This document shows, one piece after another, positions 11,759-62,210 of a stretch of 64,000 bases of DNA (positions are counted from its first letter, which is position 1; every line of letters begins with the position of its first letter). Source of the stretch: a virus. The notes beneath the pieces were generated by a model that searched no databases, had not been told where the DNA came from, and worked only from the letters and a program-made list of their open reading frames with translations. A program made the position numbers and the translations under genes. Location: the IMG/VR virus record IMGVR_UViG_3300009093_000034, positions 30,632 to 94,631 of that record. The stretch is one strand, 5' to 3'.

Positions 11759-12010
11759 ATGCCACTAAAACCTCGAATCGGTGTCCACTACGAAAGCATC
11801 AGGCCACAAGAAACCGCTGAGATGGCCATTCAACGACTTAAGATCAGACCTAAGGATTGGGTCATTCTTCCTATCATCAAACTTTCTGGATCTCAAAAGA
11901 TCCTTCCACTTAAGTTCTCAGGTATCTCAGACTCGATGACTAAGATCGAAGGACCTGGTTTTATCATTGAAAAAATGTACGATCTTTTGACTAAATCCCA
12001 AATCTCTTAA
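11759..12010 (+). CDS. hypothetical protein
   Basis: 83 aa ORF in the + strand array. Confidence 0.4.
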   Translation: MPLKPRIGVHYESIRPQETAEMAIQRLKIRPKDWVILPIIKLSGSQKILPLKFSGISDSMTKIEGPGFIIEKMYDLLTKSQIS

Positions 12011-12331: not shown

Positions 12332-12350
12332 GAACTTTCAGTTTTGTTAA

Positions 12351-12380
12351 AGATCCTCCCGAAAGGGAGGATTTTTTATT
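12351..12380 (+). terminator. rho-independent terminator
   Basis: ATCCTCCC-GAAA-GGGAGGAT hairpin followed by TTTTTTATT. Confidence 0.8.
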
Positions 12381-12398: not shown

Positions 12399-12413
12399 TG
12401 AGATATTGTAGCC
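12399..12413 (+). promoter_or_regulatory. conserved promoter-like motif TGAGATATTGTAGCC (copy 2)
   Basis: The motif ends 6 nt before the ATG at 12417, implying a leaderless or near-leaderless transcript. Confidence 0.55.
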
Positions 12414-13630: not shown

Positions 13631-14122
13631 ATGAAAAAATTTATCTTCCTCGATATTGACGGAGTTCTCGCAACCACTTGGCACAAACGCCTTGAGGATG
13701 GAGAGCTCTGTTTCAATGAGGCACCAGTCAGAAACTTTAACGATCTTTGTACGGCGGTACCTGATGCAAAGATCATCATCACCTCAACATGGCGTCTTGG
13801 TAGAACTGTTGATGAGTTGAGAGCTATCTTCAAGTTTAGAGGTTTTCTTTATCCTGAGAGGATCATCGATAAAACTCTCAGATTCTTCTACAACTACGAC
13901 CTCAGCGATGGAACCTCTGCATCTAAAGGAGTTCCTAGAGGTGTTGAGATCGCTCATTGGATGGATCATCATCTCATTGATGAGGATGAGATCTCCTACT
14001 TGATTCTTGATGACGACTCAGACATGATGCTCCGTCAAGGCAACCATTTCCTTCGAACCAATAGTTCTAGAGGTTTGACTTCGACAAACGTCAAAAGAGC
14101 GATTAAGATCCTAAATGGCTAG
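13631..14122 (+). CDS. HAD-like hydrolase (phosphatase/nucleotidase family)
   Basis: The N-terminal FIFLDIDGVLAT matches HAD motif I DxDG(T/V). Confidence 0.5.
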   Translation: MKKFIFLDIDGVLATTWHKRLEDGELCFNEAPVRNFNDLCTAVPDAKIIITSTWRLGRTVDELRAIFKFRGFLYPERIIDKTLRFFYNYDLSDGTSASKGVPRGVEIAHWMDHHLIDEDEISYLILDDDSDMMLRQGNHFLRTNSSRGLTSTNVKRAIKILNG

Positions 14123-15472: not shown

Positions 15473-15901
15473 ATGAGATTCACTCAAGAATGGTTTAGAA
15501 ACTCACCACAAGAAGAAGTCAAGCTATTGAATGGTGAGGAAGTTTGGGTCTGCGATTACAGATTCACCTCATTAGGCAACAAGCCTATTCGAGTCATTGT
15601 TCCGACTCTTTGTATCATCCACGTCAGTTTTTACGTGGACAAGTACTATCCTAGAGGAAACCCGATTCCTGTTGTAGAACTCAAGATCAAGAAGAACGGA
15701 AAAGATCTTAAGGTAGAAGACAACACAACGGCCTACAACAACTGGCTGAAGATCTTTAACGATGAACAAGAGTGCAGAGCTTTCTTCAGAGAACAAATGA
15801 CCGAAAACCTTGATGACCTAGACGAGTGGGAAAAAGGTCAGATAGAAAGAGCTGCAGAACTCAGAGCTACAATGCACAAGCTCCTAAAGGAACACGGATG
15901 A
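15473..15901 (+). CDS. hypothetical protein
   Basis: 142 aa. A 140-nt noncoding region containing inverted repeats lies upstream. Confidence 0.45.
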   Translation: MRFTQEWFRNSPQEEVKLLNGEEVWVCDYRFTSLGNKPIRVIVPTLCIIHVSFYVDKYYPRGNPIPVVELKIKKNGKDLKVEDNTTAYNNWLKIFNDEQECRAFFREQMTENLDDLDEWEKGQIERAAELRATMHKLLKEHG

Positions 15902-16698
15902 GCAACAAATTTAAGAACGATTCACTTGGAACAAGGATGAAGGAGAACTATGAGAACAGATCAAAGATCTTTCTCCCTCGTAGAACCTACATCATCCTTC
16001 GTGTGGATGGCAAAGCTTTTCACACATACACGCGTGGTCTATTAAGGCCTTTCGACCAGGGTTTGGTCGAAGACATGGACGCTACGGCAATCTACCTTTG
16101 CAAGAACATCATGGGTGCTCAGTTCGCCTATGTACAGTCTGACGAGATCTCTATTCTTCTCACAGACTTTGACACCAACGAGACCCAATCTTGGTTTGAC
16201 AACAATGTCCAGAAGCTTGCCTCAGTCTCTGCTTCTATGGCAACCTCAGCTTTCAACAAGGCCAGGATTTCAAGGTTCATGGCTACTACGACAGCAGTTC
16301 CTCTCGAGGATGCTGTGGACAAATTGACTTGGGCAGAGTTTGACTCTCGTGCCTTCCAGATCCCTCAGAAAGTTGAAGTAGAGAACTACTTCATCTGGCG
16401 TCAGCAGGATGCTACAAGAAACGCCATCTCCAGTGCTGCTCAATCTGTCTACTCCCACAAAGAACTTGAGGGAAAGTCTGGAGATGAGAAGCAAGAGATG
16501 ATGTTTCAGAGAGGCATCAACTTCAACGACTATGATCCTAAGTACAAAAGAGGTCGTTTGATCGTTACAGAAACTTTTCCAAGTATCTCAGTTACATCAG
16601 GTGACATGGCAATTAGAACAAAATGGGTCTCCACGGCCGCTCCTATCTTCACTCAAGATAGAGATGATCTCTCTGATAGAATTCCAGAAAGTAGGTAA
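15898..16698 (+). CDS. Thg1-like protein (tRNA-His guanylyltransferase family, 3'-5' nucleotidyltransferase)
   Basis: YIILRVDGKAFHTYT and YVQSDEISILL match the Thg1 hallmark blocks RIDGRxFHRF and QSDEYSF. The ATG at 15898 overlaps the upstream stop. Confidence 0.7.
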   Translation: MSNKFKNDSLGTRMKENYENRSKIFLPRRTYIILRVDGKAFHTYTRGLLRPFDQGLVEDMDATAIYLCKNIMGAQFAYVQSDEISILLTDFDTNETQSWFDNNVQKLASVSASMATSAFNKARISRFMATTTAVPLEDAVDKLTWAEFDSRAFQIPQKVEVENYFIWRQQDATRNAISSAAQSVYSHKELEGKSGDEKQEMMFQRGINFNDYDPKYKRGRLIVTETFPSISVTSGDMAIRTKWVSTAAPIFTQDRDDLSDRIPESR

Positions 16699-17035: not shown

Positions 17036-17269
17036 ATGAGCTGTTTAGTTTGTGGCCAAAATGCGTTTGATAGGATTGACATCACTATCCCTGGAGTTCC
17101 CAGAGTATATTTGAAATCCTCTAGAGGAGAAGTTGATCTTTCATTTTGCACGATCTGCGGAACTGTCAAAGCTGACGTGCCCTTCCCATCTACAACTAGA
17201 GCTGCTTTGTTAGAAGATAGATATAAAAAGATCTTAGAAAGAAACAGTGGTTTGTCCACAGATCCTTGA
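17036..17269 (+). CDS. zinc-ribbon protein
   Basis: CLVCGQ...CTICG Cys pairs. Confidence 0.4.
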   Translation: MSCLVCGQNAFDRIDITIPGVPRVYLKSSRGEVDLSFCTICGTVKADVPFPSTTRAALLEDRYKKILERNSGLSTDP

Positions 17270-17281
17270 GATATTGTAGTC
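17267..17281 (+). promoter_or_regulatory. conserved promoter-like motif TGAGATATTGTAGTC (copy 3)
   Basis: It lies 20 nt upstream of the ATG at 17301, with an AGGAGG RBS between. Confidence 0.55.
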
Positions 17282-17300: not shown

Positions 17301-17531
17301 ATGCCCGCTATTTCGGATATGGTCGAGAAGTACAAGGAACGAGTGATCGTTCTGGAACGGAAGATCTCGAACGCTGGTTACGGTGGATCCTCTGACTACA
17401 CGTCGGAGACTGAACGTGAGACCTTGATTGAGGTCATCAATGATCTCGAGGCCATGTCTGGTCTCGAAAGAACCATCTTCCCTGAACCCTTCAAGGAAGG
17501 TTGGCACGGAATGATTGGAGGTCCGAACTAA
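17301..17531 (+). CDS. hypothetical protein (GC-rich cassette)
   Basis: 76 aa with a strong RBS. Confidence 0.45.
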   Translation: MPAISDMVEKYKERVIVLERKISNAGYGGSSDYTSETERETLIEVINDLEAMSGLERTIFPEPFKEGWHGMIGGPN

Positions 17532-17915
17532 ATGGACGACACTGCTAAGGCATTTTCAGGACTTGCGATTCTTCTTCTGCTCATCTTGTGGTGTTGTGGA
17601 AGTTGCATCGGGACGGTCAGCAATCAGGCTGACATGACCGCTACTGTTATCAAAGCAGAACGGATTAACAATAGGTCCAACAACGGATCTCGTTACTTGG
17701 TCTTTACCAAGGACGTGAAGAGTCTGAGCGGAGACAGCTCTGCAACTGAAGAGGTCTTCGAAGACACCGATGAGTGGGTCTTCGGAAAGTTCAACTCTTC
17801 GGATCTGTACGGAAGCCTGACTCCCGGTACTCGTTATCAGTTCCACGTGTCTGGTGTTCGTAACCAGATGTTCTCGTGGTATCGCAACATCATCAAAGCT
17901 GAAGAGGTGAAGTAA
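17532..17915 (+). CDS. secreted/lipoprotein-like protein
   Basis: N-terminal signal-like LAILLLLILWCCGSC. Confidence 0.45.
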   Translation: MDDTAKAFSGLAILLLLILWCCGSCIGTVSNQADMTATVIKAERINNRSNNGSRYLVFTKDVKSLSGDSSATEEVFEDTDEWVFGKFNSSDLYGSLTPGTRYQFHVSGVRNQMFSWYRNIIKAEEVK

Positions 17916-17916
17916 C

Positions 17917-18375
17917 ATGTCCAAGACTCCTGCTGAACAACTTTCCATTGCGATCTCGATCGCTTCGAAGGGCCATGAAGGGGTCTTGGATAAGGGCGGC
18001 TCGCCCTACATCCTTCATCCTCTTCACGTGATGAACGCTGTTGCCCATCTTGGCTATCTGTGCATGGCTGCTGGTGTTCTTCATGACACTATTGAAGACA
18101 CTGACACCACTGCTCAGAATCTGCGTGACGCTGGTCTCGAAGAGAACGTGGTCATGACTGTCTTGGCCGTCTCTCGCCCTAATGGAGTTCTCTATGATGA
18201 CTTCATCAAGGCGATTGGAGCTACCCCCGGTATCGTAGGAACTTGGGCTCGGGCCATCAAGTTGGCTGACATCGAACACAACTCTACCGTCACTCGCCTC
18301 AAGGGTGTGGCTAAGAAGGACTTCGATCGTCTTCAGAAGTATGTCTATGCATACCAGTATCTGAAGGAAGTGTAA
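17917..18375 (+). CDS. small alarmone hydrolase (RelA/SpoT-type HD domain, (p)ppGpp hydrolase-like)
   Basis: KGHEGVLDKGGSPYILHPLHV...AAGVLHDTIEDT matches the SpoT HD-domain signature H..R.SGEPYI.HP...LLHDV.EDT. Confidence 0.65.
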   Translation: MSKTPAEQLSIAISIASKGHEGVLDKGGSPYILHPLHVMNAVAHLGYLCMAAGVLHDTIEDTDTTAQNLRDAGLEENVVMTVLAVSRPNGVLYDDFIKAIGATPGIVGTWARAIKLADIEHNSTVTRLKGVAKKDFDRLQKYVYAYQYLKEV

Positions 18376-18376
18376 G

Positions 18377-18559
18377 ATGAGTTTCAACTCTGTGGTTACT
18401 GCTGTTACTCCTACCTCTCCTCTCAACAAGAAGAACAAGACCAACTTTGGTTTGGAATTCTGGAAGAAGCTAGCTTCCAAACAGAAGGAAGCAGATCCTG
18501 AACGTCACGAATCCAAAGAATACCTTCAGCAACACACCGAAGGATGGGAGGATCTCTAA
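18377..18559 (+). CDS. hypothetical protein
   Basis: 60 aa. Confidence 0.35.
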   Translation: MSFNSVVTAVTPTSPLNKKNKTNFGLEFWKKLASKQKEADPERHESKEYLQQHTEGWEDL

Positions 18560-18801
18560 TGAGTAAAGGTACTCTTTTCATCCAAGGTAGTGTTGGCCAG
18601 GTCTCTGATGCTGATAAGGCTTGGGACCTCGTGGTCAAGGCTGGCGAAGAGAAGATGGATTTAGCTGATCGTCTTATTGGCTACAAAGAAAAGTCCATCA
18701 TGTATGGCTTTGCTTTGAAAGAGATCCGTAAGCTCATCGCTGGTAAGAAAGATACTACCTCGATGGCCATCCGAAAGATCATCCTAGAAATTCAATCATG
18801 A
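18544..18801 (+). CDS. hypothetical protein
   Basis: 85 aa. Confidence 0.4.
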   Translation: MGGSLMSKGTLFIQGSVGQVSDADKAWDLVVKAGEEKMDLADRLIGYKEKSIMYGFALKEIRKLIAGKKDTTSMAIRKIILEIQS

Positions 18802-23781: not shown

Positions 23782-24044
23782 GTGGTCCAGCTCCAAAGCA
23801 TGGACAACCTACCCACCATGAAGCTGTTCATCACGTTTATCTTACTGTAGAACAGATGGAGAAGATGACAACTCAACGTCTTCTAGCTTACTTCAAGAAA
23901 CACTTGATGCATGATCCATTCTATCCTTCCAGTGAAAAAGAAAAACATGACGAGTGGGAGATGGTTAGAGCTAAAGCTCAAAGTATACTATCAAGTAGAG
24001 AACATGTTCCTTCTAAGAGGGAACTCCAAAAGAGAAAGAAATGA
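23778..24044 (+). CDS. hypothetical protein
   Basis: 88 aa. Confidence 0.4.
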   Translation: MSGPAPKHGQPTHHEAVHHVYLTVEQMEKMTTQRLLAYFKKHLMHDPFYPSSEKEKHDEWEMVRAKAQSILSSREHVPSKRELQKRKK

Positions 24045-24463
24045 CACGATACGTTTTAGGTTTTCTTTTTGATGACGAAAAGAACACGGTCGTCTTGATC
24101 AAGAAAAACAAGCCTGTTTGGCAAAAAGGTCTCTTGAACGGTGTTGGTGGGAAGATCGAAGAAGGTGAACTTCCTATAGTCGCTATGGTAAGAGAGTTTG
24201 AAGAGGAAACGTCTGTGAAAACAGACAACCTTGATTGGAAGCACTTTGCTGGTGTTGAAGGCGAAGGTTACTCCATCGCTTGTTTCTACACCATCAGTTC
24301 TGACTACATGAAAAACGTCAAGACCATGGAAGAAGAAGTGATCGAGATTCGTAGGATTCGAGATCTTCAAGATCTTCCTATAGTCTCCAATCTTCTTTGG
24401 TTGGTTCACCTTGCAAAAGATGAAAACAATGGTAACCATCCTACTGTTCAAGTAAAGTACTAA
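24041..24463 (+). CDS. Nudix hydrolase
   Basis: GGKIEEGELPIVAMVREFEEETSV fits the Nudix box Gx5Ex7REUxEExGU almost perfectly. Confidence 0.65.
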   Translation: MTRYVLGFLFDDEKNTVVLIKKNKPVWQKGLLNGVGGKIEEGELPIVAMVREFEEETSVKTDNLDWKHFAGVEGEGYSIACFYTISSDYMKNVKTMEEEVIEIRRIRDLQDLPIVSNLLWLVHLAKDENNGNHPTVQVKY

Positions 24464-24491
24464 ATGACTGTTATTCTTCTGTGTGTACTAA

Positions 24492-24959
24492 TTGTACATG
24501 AGAAGAACCTATAGAATAGAAAAGTCTTTAGATATTGAGGAGTTCATTAGAATAACTAATGAATCGTTAACCATGAAACAAGCTGCTGTGAAACTTGGTC
24601 TTCATTTTAATAGTTTCAGAAGAATAGCAGTAAAGTATGGAGTTTATCGACCTAATCGTGGAGGCAAAGGAACCCATAAGCATAAAGAAAATGGGACTAC
24701 ACCTCTTACTGAAATTTTGGAAGGAAACCATCCATCATATCAAACGTTTAGATTAAAACTTAGATTAATTTCAGAAGGAATTTTTATTCCAGAATGTTCT
24801 GAATGCAAAAATACTCAATGGAATAAAAAAGAAATTCCTTTAGAGTTAGATCACATAGATGGAAATTCTTCTAACCATCTTTTAGACAACTTACGATTGT
24901 TATGTCCAAATTGTCATGCACAAACTGAGACGTATAGAGGAAAAAACAAAAAGTTTTGA
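24492..24959 (+). CDS. HNH homing endonuclease with N-terminal HTH
   Basis: CSECKN...LDHIDGNSSNHLLDNLRLLCPNCH is an HNH motif. Its AT-rich codon usage is distinct from the flanks. Confidence 0.7.
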   Translation: MYMRRTYRIEKSLDIEEFIRITNESLTMKQAAVKLGLHFNSFRRIAVKYGVYRPNRGGKGTHKHKENGTTPLTEILEGNHPSYQTFRLKLRLISEGIFIPECSECKNTQWNKKEIPLELDHIDGNSSNHLLDNLRLLCPNCHAQTETYRGKNKKF

Positions 24960-25634: not shown

Positions 25635-25800
25635 GTAATGACCTAGAGCTTGAGCATAGGTTAAGCCAAACGGTAAAGTAAAGGCCGCCAAATAGCAAAA
25701 GGGAGGGTTTCTATCTTCTAAAGATCTAAACCACTATATTTTGTTTTTTTAATAGATTGTTTTTCGAAAAGGGAACCTGTTGGTTCCCTTTTCCTTTTTG
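25635..25800 (+). ncRNA. candidate small non-coding RNA (promoter-to-terminator unit without ORF)
   Basis: Bounded by motif copy 5 and the strong terminator at 25767-25800. The only ORF inside is ATG-ACC-TAG. Confidence 0.35.
25767..25800 (+). terminator. rho-independent terminator
   Basis: GGGAACC-TGTT-GGTTCCC hairpin followed by TTTTCCTTTTT. Confidence 0.8.
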
Positions 25801-25849: not shown

Positions 25850-27061
25850 ATGGCCCGTATTGAAAAGCTGATCATGGTGACCGGTGAAGAGAATCACAAC
25901 AAGGTCTATGAGCTGATCGACAACGAGAACGGTACTTGTACCGCCAAGTGGGGTCGGGTTGGCGCTGCTCTTCAGGAGTGCAACTACCCCATCAGCGAGT
26001 TTGAAAAGAAGCTCAAGGAAAAGGTCAAGAAGGGCTATCGCGTGATCACCGATCTTCTGTCTGTCGAGAAAAGTGATGGTAAGACCACCACTACGGACGA
26101 CGAAGAGGTAAAGATCCAGAACATGTCCCGTGAGGCCATGGAGTTGATCAACTTCCTCCAGAGTTGTGCTAAGGGCATCGTCAAGCAGAACTACACCGTC
26201 AAAGTTGCCGACGTTACTCAGAAGCAGATCGACGCTGCTCAGGCCATCCTGGACGGACTGGTTGCTCTGTCCAACCAGAACTGGTCTCGTGAAGAGGCCA
26301 ACAAGATCCTTTTGGATCTTTACAACACCATCCCCCGGAAGATGAGCAACACCAAGAACTTCCTCATCCAGATCGACAACATCACGAAGAAGCGCCTTCA
26401 GGAGTTGATCTCCAGTGAAGCCGATCTTCTTGACGTTATGCGCGGTCAGGTTCAGACCACGAACGTTGCTCCCAAGTCTTCCACTGGCGAAGTCAAGTTG
26501 GATATTGAGATTCGTCTCGCTACTCCCGATGAGATCGATGAGATCTCCAAGAAGACTGACTTTGATGTTCGTAGTGCTGCAAGGATCTATCGGGTGGAGA
26601 ACACCAAGACCAAGAATCGCTACGAAAGTATCAACAAGCAGAATGAACAGCTTCTCTACCACGGTTCTCGCAGCCAGAACTGGTGGTCGATCATCAACGG
26701 CGGTTTGAAGATTCGTCCGACCAACGCCGTTCACACTGGCTCGATGTTCTCCGATGGTATCTACGCTGCTGACAAAGCTCAGAAGTCTCTCGGTTACACC
26801 GACGGTGGTTATTGGACTGGTAGCAGTGGTTCCTCGAAGAGGTTCCTCGGCATCTACAGTTTCAACCTCGGTCGTCAGTGGGATCTGTTCGCTGGTGGTC
26901 AGCGTCATGCCAGCTGGATGATGCAGCTCAACCTGAAGAAGATCAACGACAAGGGTTTTGACTCTCTGTTCGCTAAGGGTGGAGCAGATCTTCGCAACAA
27001 TGAGATGATCGTGTTCGAAGAGGCTCGCTGCACCATCAAGTATCTGATCGAGATGCGTTAA
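25850..27061 (+). CDS. PARP-like ADP-ribosyltransferase (WGR domain + helical domain + ART catalytic domain)
   Basis: The N-terminal WGRVG is a WGR motif. The C-terminal LYHGSRSQNWWSIINGG, GIYAADKAQKS and NEMIVFEEARCTIKYLIE blocks supply the H-Y-E triad of PARP catalytic domains. Confidence 0.75.
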   Translation: MARIEKLIMVTGEENHNKVYELIDNENGTCTAKWGRVGAALQECNYPISEFEKKLKEKVKKGYRVITDLLSVEKSDGKTTTTDDEEVKIQNMSREAMELINFLQSCAKGIVKQNYTVKVADVTQKQIDAAQAILDGLVALSNQNWSREEANKILLDLYNTIPRKMSNTKNFLIQIDNITKKRLQELISSEADLLDVMRGQVQTTNVAPKSSTGEVKLDIEIRLATPDEIDEISKKTDFDVRSAARIYRVENTKTKNRYESINKQNEQLLYHGSRSQNWWSIINGGLKIRPTNAVHTGSMFSDGIYAADKAQKSLGYTDGGYWTGSSGSSKRFLGIYSFNLGRQWDLFAGGQRHASWMMQLNLKKINDKGFDSLFAKGGADLRNNEMIVFEEARCTIKYLIEMR

Positions 27062-31571: not shown

Positions 31572-32435
31572 ATGAGAAGTTTCAAGTTCATTTCGTTGCT
31601 GGCAGTTGTTCTGTTGGCACTGGCAAGCTGTTCTCAGCTCCAGGTTAAGGCAGGTCACGTTGGTATCATCGTTGACCAGTACGGATCTGGTTCTGGTGTT
31701 GAACAGCAGGTCGTAGGTGTAGGTTATCACAGTCTTGGCTGGAATCAGCAAGGATATGACTACCCGATCTATAAGATCCAGTACCAGTTCAAGAACAATG
31801 GCAAAGAAGGAGTGGATGAATCGATCCCCTTCCAATCTAAGGAAGGTGTGAAGTGCTCGGCTGATGTGGCCATTCAGGTCCAGGTCGAGAACGATAACAA
31901 GTCGATCATCAACTTGTTCACCAGTTACCGAGAGGACATCGAGACCGTCGTCCATACCCAGGTTCATAATCGACTTCGTGACTACATGGGTCTCTACGCA
32001 TCCAAGATGACCGTAGATGATCTGTATGGAAACAAGCGCTTTGACATGTTGATTGATGTTACCAAGGCCCTAGCGGACGAGTTCTCCAAGCAAGGTCTGA
32101 TCATTGACAACCTTAGCTTCTTGGGTGTTGTTGAGTTCCCTGAGACTATCAAGTCTGCCATTGATGCAAAGATGGCTGCTACTCAAAAGGCTCAGCAGAG
32201 AGACAACGAGATCGCGACTGCTCAGGCAAGTGCTGCTATCCAGGTCACCCAGGCTAAAGGTGAGGCCGATTCTAACCGAATCTTGGCTGCTTCGATCAGT
32301 CCTGAGATCCTGAAGCTCAAGGAGCTCCAGAACCAAGAGAAGTTCATCGAGGCTCTTTCCACAGGAAAGGCTACGATGCCTACCACGTATGTGGCAGGTG
32401 GTTCTAACTCCCAGACCTTCATTCCTTTGAAGTAA
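31572..32435 (+). CDS. SPFH/band-7 domain lipoprotein (HflK/C-stomatin-like)
   Basis: It has a lipobox LASC. The SPFH-like core is followed by an Ala/Gln-rich coiled coil AATQKAQQRDNEIATAQASAAIQVTQAKGEADSNRILAAS typical of HflK/C. Confidence 0.65.
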   Translation: MRSFKFISLLAVVLLALASCSQLQVKAGHVGIIVDQYGSGSGVEQQVVGVGYHSLGWNQQGYDYPIYKIQYQFKNNGKEGVDESIPFQSKEGVKCSADVAIQVQVENDNKSIINLFTSYREDIETVVHTQVHNRLRDYMGLYASKMTVDDLYGNKRFDMLIDVTKALADEFSKQGLIIDNLSFLGVVEFPETIKSAIDAKMAATQKAQQRDNEIATAQASAAIQVTQAKGEADSNRILAASISPEILKLKELQNQEKFIEALSTGKATMPTTYVAGGSNSQTFIPLK

Positions 32436-37269: not shown

Positions 37270-39267
37270 TTAGTTTCCTAGTCTAGTGATTTGAGCCCAG
37301 TCGTTAGATCCACCACCATTTGTTCCGGTGATGTCCCTAAATTGGATTGCATCTCCTGCTAAGAGCTGGAGTTTTATTGCACTGTGGTAAGTTCCAGTGG
37401 TTGGAGGACTCATCATAACTCTTAAGTTAGATCCATTCTTCACAAGCTCAATAACGTGGTTAGTAGTAGTTCCGTTCACAATGGAACATTCATATAATCC
37501 TGAGACCGGTATGGTAAAAGTACCGGCGCTATACATGTTATGAGTATCTACTACTTTGGTAGTATACAAGATCGGGTTGTTAATCGTTGCAGCAGAAGAC
37601 CCAATGTAGTCTGCATGAACAAGAGCTGGTTGTTCTGCTGTGTTTCCATTAGAGATCTTTCTGATTCTCCAGAGAAAAGTTGAGAAAGTTGACCAATCGT
37701 CTCCTGCTCCACCATAAGCAGCACCAGAAGCAGGTCTTGCATAACGAGCAAAGCCAACTGTGACGTCAGTTCCTGTGATTCCGTTGAACCTAGTTCCAAA
37801 GTCAACCGTGTTTTGTCTCAAGTAATAAAGACCTAAGTTTCCTCTATCAGCACTGACCCAAGTTTTTCCAGAGTCAACAGAGTACTCAAAGGTTAGAATG
37901 TCACTAGGTTGAACATTTCTTTGAAATCTAACCACTTTGCTTCTAGCAACTGTCAATGTTACAGGGAACAAAGATCCTGCTGGACCAGGAACTGATGTAG
38001 AAACTGTTGCGTCAGAGTCAGCAGTAGCTGAGTTAGATGCGTACTCAGTAAAGTCTGTGTAAAGATTTATATTGACTGGCCAAGTAGAGATAGGTATGGT
38101 ACACTCAAGAGAAACTCGAATCACAGTAGTTGATAGCGCAAAGTTTGCACTGTTCCAATAACCAAGACCAACAGCAGACCCGTTTGTGTTAAGATCGGAG
38201 ATCAACAATCTTGTTGAATCAAAAGCGCTAACTGAACCACTTCCGTAAGACGTACCATTGAAGATCTTAACAGCTCCAAGAACTGTACCGTTAAAGTTTA
38301 CACCATCATCCAACACAATGTTTGTGGTGTCTATCGTGTATCCAGAAGGAAGAGAGATGAGATAAACACCTGAACCTGCAGAGCCTGCTGCTGTTTGATT
38401 CAAAGTCCAGAACAATCTCATTTTAGAACCAATTCGACTCCAAGAAGCTTTTTGAGTGTTTGTTCCAAGAGTAGGGTTGCTTGTTACTCCTGTGAGAGTT
38501 GGAGTGTAAGTACTTTCTGATCCAATGGCAGCAGCTTGAATTTGAACGTAAGAGCTAACCTGGATCTTAGCTAAGTTCACTGTATAAGCTAAAGCAGAGG
38601 TTGAGGCCACATGGAAGATAACACGATAACTTAAAGAAGATGATGCAAAGAACGAACAAGAGAACTTAGCTGGTTGAGTAGCTGTGCTAGGTAGAGATGA
38701 CAATGAAAGAGGAATTAAGACTGAGTTTGTGATGTCATATAAAAAGACGGCCATGTCATTGTCAGCATAATTTGAAGAGGTCTTGTAAGACAATGTGAAG
38801 GTAAGTTGTTGACCTCTATCTGAGTTTGAGATTTGGAAGGTCTCAGAGACACCTTGACCTTGACGATTCGCCGCATCTTTAGTAAAGAGAAAATCACTTG
38901 TGAGATCTAGAGGAGTTGTGGTGTTGACAGCCACTGTCACGTTTGGAGAACCACCGGTACCATCAACTGGAGAAGTCGATGCAGCGTCGGCGTAAGTTGA
39001 GACGTTTGTTAAACCTTGACCACCTGAAGGGTTTGAAATGTATCCAGTTGATCCTGATCCACTTGAGACTGTGGTCCAATAAGTTTGAGAGGTATCTAAG
39101 AGAGGGTCTTGTCCTGTGTTTGCTTGAACAGCTTCGAACAAAGATCCGTTTCTGTTGACAATGGCTTGAATTGGATAAGGAACTCCAGCGGACCAGAGAG
39201 CAACTTGAATGTCTGATTGCCTGATAGCAGGAGAAAGGGCAATTGGCCAACCTAAGGATCTTGACAT
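37270..39267 (-). CDS. tail fibre protein with CBM-like module and C1q-like C-terminal domain
   Basis: 665 aa. It shares an N-terminal jelly-roll-like module (FTKDAANRQGQG...) with the 1472-aa fibre. It shares a C-terminal ~110-aa domain (VDTH..G.F..P..GLY...KNGS...GD.I...ITRLG) with the two upstream ORFs. Confidence 0.65.
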   Translation of the reverse strand: MSRSLGWPIALSPAIRQSDIQVALWSAGVPYPIQAIVNRNGSLFEAVQANTGQDPLLDTSQTYWTTVSSGSGSTGYISNPSGGQGLTNVSTYADAASTSPVDGTGGSPNVTVAVNTTTPLDLTSDFLFTKDAANRQGQGVSETFQISNSDRGQQLTFTLSYKTSSNYADNDMAVFLYDITNSVLIPLSLSSLPSTATQPAKFSCSFFASSSLSYRVIFHVASTSALAYTVNLAKIQVSSYVQIQAAAIGSESTYTPTLTGVTSNPTLGTNTQKASWSRIGSKMRLFWTLNQTAAGSAGSGVYLISLPSGYTIDTTNIVLDDGVNFNGTVLGAVKIFNGTSYGSGSVSAFDSTRLLISDLNTNGSAVGLGYWNSANFALSTTVIRVSLECTIPISTWPVNINLYTDFTEYASNSATADSDATVSTSVPGPAGSLFPVTLTVARSKVVRFQRNVQPSDILTFEYSVDSGKTWVSADRGNLGLYYLRQNTVDFGTRFNGITGTDVTVGFARYARPASGAAYGGAGDDWSTFSTFLWRIRKISNGNTAEQPALVHADYIGSSAATINNPILYTTKVVDTHNMYSAGTFTIPVSGLYECSIVNGTTTNHVIELVKNGSNLRVMMSPPTTGTYHSAIKLQLLAGDAIQFRDITGTNGGGSNDWAQITRLGN

Positions 39268-39662
39268 TATGAACCTATCCTAGTGATCTGAATATAGCTG
39301 GCCGTAGGACTGCTTGACGCAGTTCCTGTAGTGTCACGCACATCGATAGTATCATTGACTGCCAGACGAACAGTCGTCACCAATTGTACACGACCTGAAC
39401 TACTACCGTCAGAGCCTTGCTTGAATGCACTACCATTTTTGTAAAGAGTCACAATATGACCTGACGATACTATGCAAAGAGCTGTGATTTGATACACACC
39501 AGCTTTAGGCGCGGTAAACTTCCAGGTACCTGTACCTGTGGTTACACATGAATCTGTATCTTCAACGAGTGTGGACCAGTTGATCGGAGTGTTAATTGTT
39601 GCTGCATCTGAGTTTGAATACTCAGCACGAATGAGGGATGTTTCCATCCATAGTTTAGCCAT
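39267..39662 (-). CDS. stand-alone C1q/TNF-like domain protein (fibre tip paralog)
   Basis: 131 aa. GTWKFTAPKAGVYQI...LYKNGSAF...VNDTIDV...IQITRIGS matches the C-terminal domains of both fibre proteins. Confidence 0.6.
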   Translation of the reverse strand: MAKLWMETSLIRAEYSNSDAATINTPINWSTLVEDTDSCVTTGTGTWKFTAPKAGVYQITALCIVSSGHIVTLYKNGSAFKQGSDGSSSGRVQLVTTVRLAVNDTIDVRDTTGTASSSPTASYIQITRIGS

Positions 39663-42600
39663 TAGCTACCGATCCTTGTGATCTGGATCCACACGTTAAC
39701 GTCTGATGGTTGAGAAGCAGCACTGTCGTTTTGAAGCCAGATCTGATCTCCTACTACCAATCGAAGAGTGATGTTTGAAGAACCAGAGGTTGCTGTTACT
39801 GGAGTGGTACCAAAGTACCTCCATCTAGAACCATTCTTAAAGATCTGACAGTTACCTGCTGTTCCTGTGGTATAGGAGTTGGTTTCTACCAAATAGAGTC
39901 CAGCAACTGGACAAACGAACTTCCAGCTTGCTCCTGTTGTGACAGCACTGTGAGTATCTTCCACTTTCGTTTGAAAGTTAAGAACTACGTTAGTTGCCGT
40001 GGAAGGAACAGAGATGTACTCAGCTCTAACCATGGATGGTTGTTCAGCCATGTTTCCATTGCTGACTTTTCTAACTCGCCACTTAACAGTAGAAAACGCA
40101 CTCCAAGCTGAACCGTTATTGGTTCCATAAGTTGATCCAGGATAAATACCGCTGTTTCCTATTTCTACTAGAGCTCGTTTCTTGTTGGTTGTGTCTCGTC
40201 TTACTTGAACACCATATCTGGCGTTACCTTGAACAGCAAATTCCATAAAAGCATAAAGAGGTCCCCAACCTATTCCGTTATCGTTTATCTCTAGAATAAG
40301 TTGGTCTGTAGATTGAATCTCTCTAGCAAAGTCAACAGCGTACTTTGTGGAGAATCCGTTAGAGAAGTCTGTACTGACAACAGCAACAAAAGCACTTCCA
40401 TCTTGACCAGTTTTTTGTCCTGTGGTAAAGGTGGTGTTGGTAGTTGTTCCTCCAGATCCATCGTTAGATGCATACTCTGTGAAATCGCTTGCTAGGTTTA
40501 CATTTGACGACCATTGAGAGATCTTAGCCTGGAAGTAAACTGTGATGACGTCTGTAGACGCCCATGTGATTGGGGTGGTTGCTGTCCATGCTGTAGCTCC
40601 GTTACCACCAAAGGGGTAACGATACTCCAAGTTAAATCCGATTCCTCCGCCTAGAAGACCAGGAGATAAATCACCACCATAACGTGAAGATGAGTGGGTT
40701 CCTATTGCATATCCAACAGGCCTGAAGGTTGAGGTTAATCCTGAAGGGAAAAGAACGTTGATCTGACCAGTAACTGCTCCAGATAAGGTGATAGCTATGA
40801 CACCTTCCAAAAGATCGCCTTTACGCCAAACGTGAGAGTTTGCTAGGTCGATAGTTCCAGGAACGTTTTGGAAAGACATTTGACCGGCGTACTCTCCACC
40901 AATTGCTGCTCCAAGAACTGGAATGAATGGAGTGATAGTAACTTGATCGATGTTCATGGTCCAAGCAAGAGCGTTTGTTGTGGCAACATGGAAAACCAAA
41001 CGATAACTTGTTGATGTCGAAGCTGGCCAGAAGGTAGCTGAGAAATAGGTTCCAGCTGAAGCAGTTGGAAGAGAGTTTATTGAGATCGGAATGAAGTTCG
41101 AGTTTGTCTTATCATATAGATAGGCTAGAATGTCTCCTGCAGCGTAGTTTGTTGATGTCTTGAAGTAGAAGGACAAACCTAGAGTGGAACCTAGAACAGC
41201 CGGATCCAAGGTAAAGTCATATGAGATTCCTTGACCTTGTCTGTTGGCAGCATCTTTGGTAATTAGACCATCGCCTGTTCCAATGAGAGGTGTTGTTCCA
41301 TTTCTAGCTAGAGTAAGGACAGCTGTTCCACCAGTTCCATCAACTGGCGTTGCTGAAGCTCCATCGTTGTATGTTGCCCAGCCAGAGATATCACTCTCAA
41401 ATGTTCCATTAGAAATGTAGTTCAATCCACTGGACGGGTTGGTGAAGATGACGCTAGGGTTGTTCAACAAAACTGTATCAGGGAAAGCTTGAACTGTCCA
41501 AAAAGAGATCACTGTTCCAGTTGAGTCTTTTACACTTAAAGAGGAAAGATCTGGAATGTTAAAGGTGGTTGAACCATCTCCAACTCCATAAGAAGTTCCC
41601 CACAATGAGAACAACTGAGAATAAAAAGATCTACCAACAGCAGCTCCGTTCAATTGTAAGAGGTTTCCTGGAAGAGATCCAACAGAACCTGTCCAAAGAG
41701 TTGTTCTTCCAAGTCCTACAAGAGCCGTTGTTCCTGTGATGACTTGAACAGGCTCACCAATGGTGATCAAGAGGTCGGTGGCGTTGACAGCGATACCGAT
41801 AGCAACTCTGAAGCTTCCAATGGTGATGGTGTTAGGATCTGTGATGACTTGGCCATTTGTACCAAGATAGTAAAAGGTTCCAGGTGTCATTCCTGATCCG
41901 AAACCAACCATGATCGAGCCAGAGGCTTGCCAAACAATGGTAGCTGCAGAAGCTCCTCCATTGAAAGCTATTCCAATAGCAGTAGCTGTTGTCTCGGTGT
42001 CGTTGCTAGCGTGTTGAAGTGTTCCAGAGGACGTGATGTAGACCACTCTCTTGGTGGTGACTGCGTTTGTTCCTACGGTTCCTGTAGATGAAGCAGAACC
42101 TCCAACAGGAGTCCAGTTTGCGTGGGTTGTGTCTGTTGATGGATCGTGGTTTAGGTTACCGTTGGCGTTAGAAGAATAGGCAACACCTAATCTGTTGATG
42201 ATCGCGTATTGGGTGTAGGTAACGTTTGATTGCCAAAGAGGAAGAGACGAGATTCTAAAAGCTTCTTTGACTGAAGCTTGAGAAGGCGGTTGAGTAGTGG
42301 AGTTTGATGCGAAGGTAGCATCATCTATGGCAGCAAGACCAGACAAAGCTGAACTGAGACCCGTGACATTAGCTATGACTACGTTAGCAAACACTCCTGA
42401 AGCTGATAAAAATTTACCTGCTGCAGTATCACCAGAAGCTGGTGCAGGAACCACACCTTGAGTTCCACCAGATCCTGAATCTCCTATGAAAGTAGGAAGA
42501 TGAACCATAACTGAAGAAGGACTGTTAGCTTGAGGAATAGCAGAACTTCCTGAAAAGTTACTGAGGATAGCATTGTTTGGTATGCTAGCCATCTTAGTAA

Positions 42601-44080
42601 GAGTTACTGCTCCGTTTGAGATCGTTGTAGAAAGAGATCCGGCAGAGTTTGTTACATCTCCAGTTAAGGCAGGAAACTGAGCAGCCTGTAAGGTTCCTGA
42701 TACATCAGAGCTAAGAGAGATAGACAAGAGGGTCTTAACTTGAGAAGGCGTTAATGCGGCTGGAGTGGCTGGAGATCCCGTGTTGTTTCCGATGATAGAG
42801 TTGGCTGCCAGGTTTGCCATCTTGGAAAGACCAACTGCTCCAGCAGAGATGGTAACAGACAATGAGCCTGATGTTGTGGTAGCATCTCCTGTTAAGGCCG
42901 GAAATTGAGCAGCTTGAAGAGTTCCAGAGACATCTGTAGAAAGAGAGATCGCTAGTAAGGTTTTAACTTGAGTTGAGGTCAACTCAGATGGTGCTGCTGA
43001 AGAACCTGAAACGTTGCCTAAGATCGATGAGTTGGAGATGTTAGCCAACATTGACAAGGTGACTTGACTAGCTCCGATTGAGAACTGAGTTCCAGTAAGT
43101 GTTAAACCAGAGCCTGCTGTGTAACTAGGAACAGCGGAGAACTGGACGAAAGTGATGTTTGTGGTTCCTACGGTCAAACCTGAAGTAGGTGTTGTACAAA
43201 CCCATCCTGTTGAAGCATTTATTGTACCAGAAAGAACTAGAGAGAAAGCACCGAAGAACTCCGTAGGAGCATCCATACCAACAGATCTTGTAAGAACTAC
43301 AAAGAGTCCAGCTCCACCGGCGTTGGTGACTGTATAAAGACCATTGTGAGGTTGATTTCCTCCTGTCTCGTTCTTAACTAGAACAACATCGCCTAACGAA
43401 AGAACAACGCCATCTATGGTTAAGGTTCCACTTCCGTTCATGGTGATCGTAGCACCGACTCCTGAGGTTCCGTTGGAGTAGGTGTTGGAAGGAAGAGCCG
43501 TTGTTGTGGCTACTTTAGCAGAAGATTTGACAGACAAGCCTTGAGCTGTCATGTCAACGTAGTTCTTGGTAGCGATGTCTTGAGCAGCAGAAGGATCAAC
43601 GACTTGAGCTCGGCCAGATCCATCTCTTAGAACTGGTTGGTTTACTGTTGCTGAAGAGGTTCCTACTACCACCCAAGTTCCACCAGCTGATAAGAACTTA
43701 TGACTAGAGAAATCTCCAGAGGCTGGAGCTGGAACTAGACCAGCTGTTCCTCCAGAACCTGAGTCTCCAACCAAGATAGAAAGGTAAGCTGTGATGGCTG
43801 AGATCGCTGTAGCGACAGGTATTGCTGGAGACCCTGTGACGTTGGCTAGAACAGTGTGAGACGCTATGTTTCCTAGACCACCTGCTGCTAAAGCATCTTC
43901 TAGGTCTGGGATATCTGAGATCTGAGGATAAGGTTGGTTGTCTCTCTTGATCCCGTTCTCAGGATCAAACTCCATGGACCTACCATTCTGAGAAATGGTG
44001 ATCTTAGCTCCGGCCGTGATCTGTCCGGTTGTTTTGAGAGTACCGGTAAGGATGGATGGAACTAGGAGAGGATTTGCCAT
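39662..44080 (-). CDS. large tail fibre protein (1472 aa) with internal tandem repeats
   Basis: GDSGSGGTxGxVPAPASGD..KFLSAxG(T/V)W occurs twice. About 75-aa repeats (SQVKTLLxISLSxDVSGTLQAAQFPALTGD) occur about 2.5 times. It also has a CBM-like module and a C1q-like C-terminus. Confidence 0.75.
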   Translation of the reverse strand: MANPLLVPSILTGTLKTTGQITAGAKITISQNGRSMEFDPENGIKRDNQPYPQISDIPDLEDALAAGGLGNIASHTVLANVTGSPAIPVATAISAITAYLSILVGDSGSGGTAGLVPAPASGDFSSHKFLSAGGTWVVVGTSSATVNQPVLRDGSGRAQVVDPSAAQDIATKNYVDMTAQGLSVKSSAKVATTTALPSNTYSNGTSGVGATITMNGSGTLTIDGVVLSLGDVVLVKNETGGNQPHNGLYTVTNAGGAGLFVVLTRSVGMDAPTEFFGAFSLVLSGTINASTGWVCTTPTSGLTVGTTNITFVQFSAVPSYTAGSGLTLTGTQFSIGASQVTLSMLANISNSSILGNVSGSSAAPSELTSTQVKTLLAISLSTDVSGTLQAAQFPALTGDATTTSGSLSVTISAGAVGLSKMANLAANSIIGNNTGSPATPAALTPSQVKTLLSISLSSDVSGTLQAAQFPALTGDVTNSAGSLSTTISNGAVTLTKMASIPNNAILSNFSGSSAIPQANSPSSVMVHLPTFIGDSGSGGTQGVVPAPASGDTAAGKFLSASGVFANVVIANVTGLSSALSGLAAIDDATFASNSTTQPPSQASVKEAFRISSLPLWQSNVTYTQYAIINRLGVAYSSNANGNLNHDPSTDTTHANWTPVGGSASSTGTVGTNAVTTKRVVYITSSGTLQHASNDTETTATAIGIAFNGGASAATIVWQASGSIMVGFGSGMTPGTFYYLGTNGQVITDPNTITIGSFRVAIGIAVNATDLLITIGEPVQVITGTTALVGLGRTTLWTGSVGSLPGNLLQLNGAAVGRSFYSQLFSLWGTSYGVGDGSTTFNIPDLSSLSVKDSTGTVISFWTVQAFPDTVLLNNPSVIFTNPSSGLNYISNGTFESDISGWATYNDGASATPVDGTGGTAVLTLARNGTTPLIGTGDGLITKDAANRQGQGISYDFTLDPAVLGSTLGLSFYFKTSTNYAAGDILAYLYDKTNSNFIPISINSLPTASAGTYFSATFWPASTSTSYRLVFHVATTNALAWTMNIDQVTITPFIPVLGAAIGGEYAGQMSFQNVPGTIDLANSHVWRKGDLLEGVIAITLSGAVTGQINVLFPSGLTSTFRPVGYAIGTHSSSRYGGDLSPGLLGGGIGFNLEYRYPFGGNGATAWTATTPITWASTDVITVYFQAKISQWSSNVNLASDFTEYASNDGSGGTTTNTTFTTGQKTGQDGSAFVAVVSTDFSNGFSTKYAVDFAREIQSTDQLILEINDNGIGWGPLYAFMEFAVQGNARYGVQVRRDTTNKKRALVEIGNSGIYPGSTYGTNNGSAWSAFSTVKWRVRKVSNGNMAEQPSMVRAEYISVPSTATNVVLNFQTKVEDTHSAVTTGASWKFVCPVAGLYLVETNSYTTGTAGNCQIFKNGSRWRYFGTTPVTATSGSSNITLRLVVGDQIWLQNDSAASQPSDVNVWIQITRIGS
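42520..43110 (-). repeat. tandem ~225-nt coding repeats within tail fibre gene
   Basis: Protein residues ~325-520 form about 2.5 near-identical units. The repeat is visible at nucleotide level. Confidence 0.6.
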
Positions 44081-52831: not shown

Positions 52832-54043
52832 ATGCCAAACACAGACAAAAATCACTCCACTCACATTGAAGACTCTGTCCTACAAGGTCCGAAGAAGATC
52901 CAAATGGCGATCCTCTTCTTTGAAGGTCTTCTCAACAACTCGTCTAGTCTAACCAAGAGTCTCAAGATCGACGGAGCTCCCGTTGTCTTGGCAGGTTCCA
53001 ACGCTGTTGGGATCACCAGGCCTTTTGTTGCAGCCAAGTCCTTCTTGAACAACGGTAAGGTCGCGACCAACGAGGATGAGATCCAAGAGCTCTTTGGAGA
53101 TCGTCCTGGTCTTGCTTCCAAGATGAAGAAGCTTCTTGAGCTCCTTCCAGAACTTCAGATCCCTGAAGGAGAGATTTGGAGAGGAGACTTGCTCTTCTCT
53201 AAAGACACTCTTCAAAACGAAGGTGGAAACAACTACTTCCACCCTAACACTCTTGTTTATGCTCCAAACTCCCAATCTGAGATTGATGCTGTCAATCAAG
53301 CAGACATCGGAATCATCTGGCACACCTACTACACAGGGGAGACACTTACGTCTCTCACAGCTCATGCCGATCTCGATGTCTACCGATTGAAACCTTCTAC
53401 ATCTGTTTTTACTCTGAGTCCTCTCTTCAAACAAGAAGAGCTCTCCATTGAGGAAACCTTCTTGATCAAGAGTACATTGGCAACAGTCAAGGAAAGATTC
53501 AGAGGTCTGATGGCTGGTTCTGTTGGAGCTACGTACGCCGAAGTTCTTAAGAACAAGGTGTTTCTTGAACACCTCACAACCTACCTCAATCACTTGATCA
53601 GACAAGGAAAAGGAATCTACCAGTTCTCTCCTACGGATCTTGCTTACAGCTGGATCCCTCAACGATATGAGCAAAAGATCGAAGGTCTTAAGACTGAGAA
53701 GTTCAAGACCAAGTGGAAGAACGAACGAGACTCCTACATCGATGCTGCTAGGTTCATTGAACCTGTCCTTGGTCAGATGATCTCCTTGATGAAAGCCCTT
53801 GTTCACGTCAAGGCTTTGTTCATCCAAAACTTCAACTCTTTGAAAGATCTTCCTTTCATGACCTTCTACAAAAAGAAGATCGATGATCGGGCTGTGTTGG
53901 TCAAGACTGCTCATGAAGGCTTTGTCATCACGGACAAGAAAGGAAACTCTTTTAAGCTTGTTGACCGAGAAGAGTTCACGAAGATCAACTTTGGAGTTGA
54001 TACTGTTCGCGGATGGAAGGAAGAGTCGAAACAAGTCCAATGA
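52832..54043 (+). CDS. putative nucleotidyltransferase/ligase-like protein
   Basis: LKIDGAPV is a KxDG motif-I-like block. The C-terminal HEGFVITDKKGNSFKLVD resembles ligase motifs IV/V. The assignment is tentative because the motif spacing is unusually long. Confidence 0.4.
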   Translation: MPNTDKNHSTHIEDSVLQGPKKIQMAILFFEGLLNNSSSLTKSLKIDGAPVVLAGSNAVGITRPFVAAKSFLNNGKVATNEDEIQELFGDRPGLASKMKKLLELLPELQIPEGEIWRGDLLFSKDTLQNEGGNNYFHPNTLVYAPNSQSEIDAVNQADIGIIWHTYYTGETLTSLTAHADLDVYRLKPSTSVFTLSPLFKQEELSIEETFLIKSTLATVKERFRGLMAGSVGATYAEVLKNKVFLEHLTTYLNHLIRQGKGIYQFSPTDLAYSWIPQRYEQKIEGLKTEKFKTKWKNERDSYIDAARFIEPVLGQMISLMKALVHVKALFIQNFNSLKDLPFMTFYKKKIDDRAVLVKTAHEGFVITDKKGNSFKLVDREEFTKINFGVDTVRGWKEESKQVQ

Positions 54044-58553: not shown

Positions 58554-58919
58554 ATAAAGGGAACTCTGTTTCAGCGTAACAACCGAAGTTAGCGCCGACA
58601 AAATGAGATGATGCGAAAGGCCTTGGGGAGCACAAGGTACCAACGAGTAGCTACCATCTCACGTACTGTCTCTCATGCCCCTGAGAGAACTTCCGTTTTA
58701 AGAAGCGACCACGAATTGCTTCCCAGGTTGCGGAAGAACAAATAGTTCCCGAGCAAAGTAGTGTAACGGTTTCGCACGACCAGTGTCTACTGGTTAGTTC
58801 TAGGATCATCCCCTAGACTTTGCTATTGCTCTTGAATTCCACGTAAAGGAGGTTAACCATTCACATGAATTCCAAGGACAACTTTCACACTTCACACATC
58901 ATAAGGTCTTCTCACGAAA

Positions 58920-61972: not shown

Positions 61973-62210
61973 TATTTTCCTTCTTTATCAAAAGTAATAT
62001 ATAGACTAATGTGCAAATTTACTCACCAATGCAAATAAGAAAAAGTTAATATGGATTCCTAGATTGTTCATTTTGAACAGTGTGTAAAATGAGCAGCATA
62101 TATAAGAATCTAACATAATAAGAATCTTAGTACTTAGGGTCAAACCCGGATCAACAAGAGGTTGATTGGAGTTCATGAAGTTTTTACTGGACCATGTTAT
62201 ACTTGTTTGT

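Follow-up and report, generated by a model that had tools for sequence, protein, structure and literature searches.

The 64,000-nucleotide stretch of viral DNA analysed here (positions 30,632 to 94,631 of IMG/VR record IMGVR_UViG_3300009093_000034; hereafter the window) carries on its plus strand, at 17917..18375, a gene for a 152-amino-acid (aa) small alarmone hydrolase (SAH) with an HD domain, which open reading frame (ORF), homology, residues and fold assign to the Aph1/PbcSpo type. To judge from sequence comparison, the protein is an intact and divergent member of this known family. Toxic RelA–SpoT-type synthetases (Tas1/Apk, FaRel, CapRel and relatives) serve as weapons between bacteria, in competition among prophages and in defence against phages; a phage hydrolase that stands alone is an obvious counter-measure, and we know of none that has yet been tested in a real infection. 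The gene described here belongs to the family, its catalytic and specificity residues are intact, it comes from a phage, and no toxin lies with it within the window. From activities measured in relatives we infer its substrate and a role in counter-defence: it is probable, if well short of certain, that the enzyme works as a stand-alone detoxifier that removes the 3'-pyrophosphate from adenosine nucleotides during infection and so reverses the action of toxic RelA/SpoT homologue (RSH) synthetases.

Family placement and fold

The ORF runs from an ATG at 17917 to a TAA at 18373–18375, and its translation includes ILHPLHVMNAV and VLHDTIEDTD; the initial annotation, made from the sequence alone, had described a 152-aa ORF with HPLHV and LHDTIEDT motifs, and was exact in both coordinates and motifs. 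A Shine–Dalgarno-like AAGAGGTG, read from the sequence, lies 7 nt 5' of the ATG (17902..17909, + strand). Packing is tight, with the preceding ORF stopping at 17915 and the following one beginning at 18377, both on the same strand. The protein matches phrog_990 ('metal-dependent phosphohydrolase') with E = 2e-38 and has 102 database homologues at E ≤ 1e-10, the nearest non-identical one, in the databases searched, being 52% identical. Because these matches, together with that to the Aph1 structure 7SMG (E = 2e-28), lie far beyond chance, the ORF is clearly a genuine gene. A 195-aa antisense ORF (17893–18480, − strand) spans the whole of it and is taken as a by-product of coding-strand composition; gene calling on the source contig included neither this nor any other antisense ORF of the region.

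The top sequence match in the PDB is Aph1 of Bacteroides caccae (7SMG), which aligns from end to end (residues 9–151 to 8–143; E = 2.3e-28, 102 bits, 42% identity), whereas Rel, SpoT and MESH1 structures reach at most 39 bits, in alignments that span the N-terminal half or, at their longest, residues 5–125. General domain models cover the protein only in part. Pfam HD_4 (PF13328) scores 26.0 bits, below its gathering cut-off of 27.2, and covers only positions 1–75 of the 156 in the profile, and the match to the NCBIfam spoT_relA models is limited to the first 75 positions; PF13328 is given in the precomputed hits for this protein and for many of its homologues. The Aph-type C-terminal half is poorly represented by the HD_4 model. 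It was with the HD-less C-terminal segment of Aph1 (Y90–E143) as search query that Ahmad et al. defined the Aph family (PMC10083569). The C-terminal 60 aa of the present protein, which likewise lack the HD motif, are 47% identical to that segment (E = 6e-17, pairwise), and when searched by themselves against the whole PDB they match Aph1 only (7SMG, E = 1.4e-8), so that for this C-terminal third no similarity to the Mesh1/Rel group was detectable.

Two phage SAHs with published activity help to fix the branch. The protein scores 107 bits against gp220 of Salmonella phage PVP-SE1 (PbcSpo), as opposed to 44.7 bits against the SAH of Salmonella phage SSU5 (PaSpo). The latter is also a stand-alone enzyme, neutralises toxSAS toxins and has the HD core in common with the present protein (35% identity over 126 aa); it differs in its length of 213 aa and in its own best PDB matches, which are Rel and Mesh1 (46–56 bits) rather than Aph1 (33.6 bits). 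Since the SSU5 enzyme scores so low here and itself prefers Rel/Mesh1 over Aph1, sequence favours the PbcSpo/Aph1 branch for the present protein over PaSpo, Mesh1 or Rel. The comparison with Mesh1 and SAH families that the initial annotation had proposed has thus been made, and it sets a full-length match to Aph1/PbcSpo (102 bits) against Mesh1, Rel and PaSpo matches of 27–45 bits, which taken together cover the N-terminal half or, at the widest, residues 5–125.

The predicted structure agrees. An AlphaFold2 model built from 51 homologues has a predicted local distance difference test score of 95.8 and a predicted template modelling (TM) score of 0.90, and its best PDB matches in Foldseek are the four chains of 7SMG (TM 0.84–0.93, root mean square deviation 1.5–2.5 Å, 42–43% identity), followed by MESH1, Rel, PaSAH and RelH at TM about 0.7–0.78. 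The model has eight main helices and the chain ends, at residue 152, straight after helix 8. Aph1 is compact and does without helices 0 and 9 of the ppGpp hydrolases (PMC10083569), and the same architecture, lacking helix 0 and helix 9, is predicted for the present protein. The only domain matches within the 152 aa are HD_4 and the N-terminal spoT_relA, and the model forms one all-helical domain; a phage-encoded, single-domain RelA/SpoT-type HD hydrolase, as the initial annotation had it, is what family, residues, fold and accompanying phage genes all support.

Aph1, a tetramer that hydrolyses (p)ppApp and not (p)ppGpp (Ahmad et al., PNAS 2023, PMC10083569), is accordingly the closest characterized structure. 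The two proteins share a single HD domain of ~150 aa, the metal ligands and the Glu–Asp (ED) dyad, the eight-helix fold without helices 0 and 9, the Aph1 residues D24, R119, K133 and Y134, and a phage origin. They differ in two short insertions, one of 2 and one of 5 residues (the α2–α3 region and the segment before α7), in the replacement of R96 and D116 by Ala99 and Thr124, and in falling into separate clades of a neighbour-joining tree. The hydrolase domains of Mesh1, RelH, PaSAH and Rel/SpoT belong to the same superfamily and have the same metal site and ED dyad (TM about 0.7–0.78, as above); they differ in having extra helices and an Arg at the base-contacting position occupied here by Asp25, and in being guanosine-directed or promiscuous.

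Residues, substrate and role in infection

Residues were counted in an alignment of the 102 homologues with Aph1 and in a separate alignment of 51 sequences. The metal ligands H34, H56, D57 and D118 are invariant in the latter, as is D61; in the former, H34, H56, D57 and E60 occur in 102 of 102 sequences, and D61 and D118 in 101. The catalytic dyad E60–D61 (HDTIED) and N122, the ribose/phosphate-site Asn, are kept in 101–102 of the 102. The initial annotation had named missing metal-binding His or Asp residues as a sign against hydrolase function; all of them (H34, H56–D57, D118) are present and invariant among the 51.

Specificity in Aph1 has been tied to a six-residue signature of D24, R96, D116, R119, K133 and Y134 (PMC10083569). 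Four of the six are kept here, as D25, R127, K141 and Y142 (Aph1 D24, R119, K133 and Y134, respectively), and across the 102 homologues they occur in 101, 101, 90 and 102 sequences. The position of D25 holds the guanine-contacting Arg in our alignments with SeRel and MtRel, in agreement with the published mapping (TtRel R43; PMC10083569). In Aph1 the D24R/R119A double mutant gains ppGpp hydrolysis (PMC10083569), and because this ppGpp-excluding pair is retained as D25 and R127, we predict with moderate confidence an adenosine-directed 3'-pyrophosphohydrolase. The initial annotation had left the choice between (p)ppGpp and ppApp-type alarmones; the same pair favours the latter, and makes (p)ppGpp, and with it modulation of the stringent response, the less likely branch.

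Hydrolysis of (p)ppGpp deserves weighing all the same, as the enzyme would then collapse the host stringent response and keep transcription, translation and nucleotide synthesis at growth-phase levels. The HD core is common to Rel, SpoT and Mesh1, and databases name homologues 'guanosine-3',5'-bis(diphosphate) 3'-pyrophosphohydrolase', names that are automatic and untested. The changes of R96 to A99 and of D116 to T124 also depart from the Aph1 signature; these two columns are variable among the 102 homologues (R33/K19/A18 and others; D63/K15/R7 and others), and Aph1 single mutants at R96 and D116 stay closed to ppGpp (PMC10083569). All 12 purified Aph1 homologues hydrolysed ppApp, and two of the 12 had modest ppGpp activity (PMC10083569). 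Set against this are the scores of the ppGpp hydrolases (at most 39 bits, over residues 5–125 at most, versus 102 bits over the full length of Aph1), the Asp25 that replaces the base-contacting Arg of Rel alongside a retained R127, both of which had to be reverted in Aph1 before it cut ppGpp, and a model that ends after helix 8 and so lacks the C-terminal helix 9 of the ppGpp-hydrolysing PaSAH and SeRel. We therefore regard a (p)ppGpp hydrolase as unlikely.

Fainter still, and the least probable of the activities considered, is that of a phosphatase for some other 2'- or 3'-phosphorylated adenosine metabolite (NADPH, pAp/PAPS or a CoA-type compound). The structural matches that come next include those of MESH1 with NADPH and with PAPS (5VXA, 9CHY; TM about 0.76), and SAH promiscuity is documented (PMC9765508), an activity of this kind being reported for MESH1 and for the Xanthomonas orphan SAH. 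The present protein is much closer to Aph1 than to MESH1 in both sequence and structure, however, it keeps the Aph-specific C-terminal region and signature, and the tested Aph homologues are efficient ppApp hydrolases.

If the detoxifier reading is right, the orphan hydrolase would be expressed from an accessory-gene array during jumbo phage infection. An HD-coordinated Mg2+ or Mn2+ ion and the E60–D61 dyad would cleave the adenosine 3'-pyrophosphate, turning pppApp, ppApp and pApp into ATP, ADP and AMP plus pyrophosphate, with Asp25 and Arg127 disfavouring guanine. The toxic products could stem from host toxSAS toxin–antitoxin or abortive-infection modules, from Tas1-type secreted effectors, or from MuF–Apk toxins of rival phages, and the phage would benefit by sustaining the ATP pool and purine synthesis for its own replication. 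The ends of tRNA, where A76 is an adenosine, are a possible further substrate, cleavage of which would keep tRNA chargeable and protect translation. Membership of the Aph1 family and the residues described above lend support to the earlier suggestion that the enzyme could act on ppApp-type alarmones and interfere with nucleotide-based defence.

The nearest functional precedent is again PVP-SE1. Its stand-alone SAH (PbcSpo) neutralised all five toxSAS toxins FaRel, FaRel2, PhRel, PhRel2 and CapRel, of which FaRel makes (pp)pApp, and phage SAHs were proposed there as a bypass of alarmone-based defence (Jimmy et al. 2020, PMC7229694). Like the present protein (42% identity, 107 bits), gp220 is an orphan SAH of a large lytic myovirus, has Aph1 as its own best PDB match, and lies in the same superclade of our tree; it differs in its 169 aa with an N-terminal extension, in overlapping a 'thymidylate kinase' gene, and in its enterobacterial host.

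Several points weigh against a stand-alone adenosine detoxifier. Even the closest of the tested enzymes is only 42% identical to the protein. Two Aph1 signature positions are changed (R96 to A99, D116 to T124), and the modest ppGpp activity of two of 12 Aph homologues means that strict adenine specificity cannot be assumed (PMC10083569). As for the precedent, gp220, the sole match in the PVP-SE1 genome, is only presumably the clone that was tested. The reading presumes that the host or its competitors produce (p)ppApp or bear toxSAS; across 81 related loci the gene has no conserved neighbours that would point to one role; and since the window is 64 kb of a 306-kb genome, a cognate toxin may be encoded elsewhere.

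A different substrate is suggested by toxSAS toxins that act on RNA. FaRel2, PhRel, PhRel2 and CapRel pyrophosphorylate tRNA at its CCA end (Kurata et al., 10.1101/2021.04.30.441581), and it is possible, on a tentative view, that the 3'-pyrophosphorylated A76 they leave is the physiological substrate, the hydrolase restoring chargeable CCA ends within a dispersed phage RNA-repair toolkit. Such a role is compatible with detoxification of nucleotides. The modified end is a 3'-pyrophosphoryl adenosine, which would suit an adenine-selective pocket, and the PVP-SE1 PbcSpo SAH, 42% identical to the present protein, neutralised the four tRNA-targeting toxins (PMC7229694). ATfaRel of Cellulomonas marina, the type IV antitoxin of FaRel, degrades (pp)pApp and takes off the tRNA 3'-pyrophosphate (PMC7229694; 10.1101/2021.04.30.441581), and it restored aminoacylation of FaRel2-modified tRNA in vitro (10.1101/2021.04.30.441581). 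It belongs to the same named PbcSpo subfamily as the PVP-SE1 enzyme; it differs in being encoded beside its toxin in a three-gene toxin–antitoxin operon.

The window itself carries genes for an HAD_SAK_2 phosphatase (13631–14122; PF18143, E = 1e-25), a Thg1-like 3'–5' polymerase (15898–16698; PF04446, E = 2e-27, plus Thg1C) and a T4 Rnl1-like RNA ligase (56490–57587; PF09511, E = 6e-11), which together with the hydrolase suggest an investment in tRNA/RNA end repair. A stronger form of the idea, that the real job of the hydrolase is RNA repair and that tRNA CCA-OH ends pyrophosphorylated by defence toxins of the CapRel/FaRel2 type are regenerated by it alongside the Thg1-like polymerase, the SAK-type HAD phosphatase and the Rnl1-like ligase, strikes us as rather more doubtful; if true, it would take the Aph1 clade beyond the detoxification of nucleotides to the healing of RNA ends. 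Against a repair role, tblastn (E < 1e-4) finds neither Thg1 nor HAD_SAK_2 homologues in the 10 kb around the hydrolase in 81 related loci, so that their closeness here does not reflect a conserved link; 38 kb separate the hydrolase gene from that of the RNA ligase, and we found no literature test on tRNA for compact-tetramer enzymes of the Aph1 clade.

Relatives, their loci and the question of a toxin partner

Relatives of the hydrolase were found in 285 cultured phage records and on at least 474 IMG/VR contigs, and the Aph1-type family is common in large lytic phages. Clustering of ORFs from the best 80 IMG/VR loci showed that in 23–24 of them the hydrolase comes directly behind a portal gene of SPP1 type (PF05133) and the gene of a MuF-like protein that resembles Tas1 at its C-terminus (6OX6, E = 1e-26). 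A Tis1-like small gene also precedes the hydrolase in 15 of these MuF-linked loci, and a small conserved ORF occurs in 16. Such loci are further examples of the Apk2–Tis1–Aph1 cassette of Ahmad et al. (PMC10083569). They comprise L010, L025, L028, L029, L036, L037, L040, L043–L045, L047–L049, L051–L053, L055, L058, L059, L065, L069, L070 and L077 (around 4–10 kb in each), many of them from metagenome 3300045988.

These loci raise the possibility that the enzyme confers self-immunity against a (p)ppApp synthetase toxin of the same phage, an Apk2/Tas1-like domain borne on MuF or another virion protein, as Aph1 does in its Bacteroides prophage and as the 23–24 loci with a MuF–Tas1-like toxin would also have it; that the window covers only 64 kb of the 306 kb leaves room for such a toxin. 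Within it, none was found: a hidden Markov model built from the MuF–Tas1-like toxins of the related loci gave no Tas1/Apk-like domain in the 64 kb at E ≤ 10 (hmmsearch). The toxin genes of MuF-linked loci end a few hundred bases 5' of the hydrolase, whereas the flanks here are unrelated small ORFs, and the protein falls outside the MuF-linked clade. Immunity to a toxin of its own phage is thus very unlikely, and a self-immunity cassette at this locus, with no toxin match and unrelated flanking genes, was rejected within the window.

In the neighbour-joining tree, which is rough and without bootstrap, the hydrolase belongs to a 20-member metagenomic clade; the enclosing superclade of 123 sequences includes PVP-SE1 gp220 and has zero MuF-linked members, and Aph1 groups with the MuF-linked loci. 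Aph1 itself lies in the MuF–Apk2/Tis1/Aph1 toxin–immunity cassette of a temperate phage, in contrast to the orphan gene of a jumbo phage described here. Conservation of neighbours is nearly nil: of 33 window proteins (9–27 kb) compared with 81 related loci by tblastn, only the hydrolase itself and, in two loci, an HNH endonuclease found a counterpart. A conserved five-gene module and a link to the Thg1 or HAD genes were both rejected, no neighbour co-occurring with the hydrolase in these 81 loci. On two relatives' contigs the gene likewise lies among arrays of small ORFs without known function. Because a toxin is absent, neighbours are not conserved and relatives lie among small-ORF arrays, we regard the gene as an accessory orphan that travels from phage to phage by itself.

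On one of these two contigs (L084, 163 kb) a Tad2-like gene (Thoeris anti-defence; 937–1293) lies ~7 kb from the hydrolase homologue P0014 (8001–8435), which hints that such hydrolases occur in anti-defence or accessory regions.

Genomic setting in the phage

The hydrolase is carried by an uncultured jumbo phage of ~306 kb. Two proteins encoded in the window mark it as a phage, a major capsid protein of Gp23 type (above the PF07068 threshold) and a giant protein with a tail-collar domain; its size is indicated by the identical hydrolase protein on a 305,853-bp metagenomic contig (ENA ERZ27252312, k141_4393686). A nucleotide comparison of 15–21 kb with 50,697 phage records gave no match, and the major capsid protein found only one remote phage match. 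A family A DNA polymerase gene is also present in the window.

The initial annotation had placed the hydrolase in a GC-rich, motif-driven five-gene block behind the third copy of a promoter motif. The motif, TGAGATATTGTAG, has 10 copies in the window at up to two mismatches, compared with 2.2 ± 1.4 expected, and 10 were reached in none of 100 shuffles. Seven are on the plus strand (12008, 12399, 17267, 25620, 25810, 44105 and 56257), intergenic or at a gene end, and six of these lie 5 to 27 nt 5' of an ATG. The copies at 12399 and 25810 follow directly 3' of strong 12-bp terminator-like hairpins (12349–12376 and 25766–25793), and at 12008, where TTGACT stands 18 nt upstream, the scanner calls GATATT a −10 hexamer. 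The third copy along the window (17267..17279, + strand) overlaps the stop codon of the previous ORF and, as the annotation had it, lies ahead of the block, 21 nt from its first ATG (17301). A sigma-70 consensus scan called no promoter at 17267, where a −35 is absent, and there is no terminator ahead of this copy. By analogy with the copy at 12008 the motif may be read as an extended −10 element (TG-n-GATATT), which would make the 17267 copy a probable internal promoter for the hydrolase gene. 'Motif-driven' accordingly stands as far as enrichment goes (10 versus 2.2 expected), with a promoter role that is presumptive at a site lacking a −35.

Two genes separate this copy from the hydrolase on the plus strand: one of 76 aa with no family match (17301..17531; GC 0.50), and one of 127 aa with an N-terminal hydrophobic segment that matches phrog_301, 'secreted protein', at E = 1.5e-16 (17532..17915; GC 0.48). 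Two small ORFs with no family match follow the hydrolase gene (60 aa and about 80–85 aa; 18377..18801, + strand). Co-directional, tightly packed genes then run on to about 25.6 kb; hairpins up to 24 kb are weak and inside ORFs only, and the next strong terminator-like one is at 25766–25793, with 24000–24900 outside the scan. With no downstream boundary after 18801 and no conservation of the neighbours in 81 loci, the five-gene block or operon does not hold up as a bounded or conserved unit. Its GC-richness is relative: at 51.2% GC, the hydrolase gene stands above the window mean of 43.6% and ranks sixth of 101 ORFs (mean 43.1% ± 4.4), about +1.8 standard deviations, and the term holds in that sense and not beyond it. 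Genes right behind motif copies, the hydrolase gene included, have raised GC, with third-position GC (GC3) of 0.54–0.68 against a window mean of 0.45.

Searches of the surroundings returned little. Pfam and PHROGs gave nothing for eight of nine flanking small ORFs; PADLOC models matched neither the hydrolase nor, at a significant level, any of the small flanking genes or of the other window genes that were tested; and an Rfam scan of the whole window at gathering thresholds found no RNA family, and hence no riboswitch near the hydrolase gene.

Further along, a 403-aa protein with a PARP catalytic domain (25850–27061; PF00644; phrog_23333, E = 7e-49) is encoded just behind a motif copy, with a NUDIX hydrolase gene 5' of it (24041–24463) that has a weak match to PADLOC PDC-S07 (E = 2e-7); the two are possible ADP-ribose/NAD conflict genes. 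The HNH endonuclease gene (24498–24959) has a GC content of 31.8% and a GC3 of 0.20, compared with 43.6% for the genome, and since this GC is strikingly low it suggests a recently acquired homing endonuclease; in loci L018 and L005 its homologues are found no further than 10 kb from the hydrolase gene. Segments 38846–38999 and 41223–41376, about 72% identical and 2,377 bp apart, lie in minus-strand ORFs 37270–39267 and 39662–44080, the larger of which has the tail-collar domain and both of which have C1q-like C-terminal matches under the Pfam cut-off; this repeat looks like duplicated tail-fibre modules. ARAGORN reports a 'tRNA-???' at 58752–58825 with an irregular two-base anticodon, for which the Rfam tRNA model is silent at gathering threshold, and it is probably not a functional tRNA. 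Accessory genes at 62166–63854, 31572–32435 and 52832–54043 include a GroEL-like chaperonin (PF00118, E = 2e-66) and SPFH/Band 7 and DUF6267 proteins.

Phage stand-alone SAHs of the Aph1/PbcSpo branch, their co-expression tests and the proposal of counter-defence are already known (Jimmy 2020, PMC7229694), as are the Aph1 family with its structure and the determinants of its specificity (Ahmad 2023, PMC10083569). New here are a divergent orphan member (at most 52% identity in the databases searched), its jumbo-phage setting and its partly deviant signature. The protein is a natural variant in which the adenine-specificity pair is kept and two signature positions are lost, and it is useful as such for asking which residues set specificity. 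The hydrolase gene confirms existing ideas rather than changing them, and its value lies mainly in experiments on specificity and on infection.

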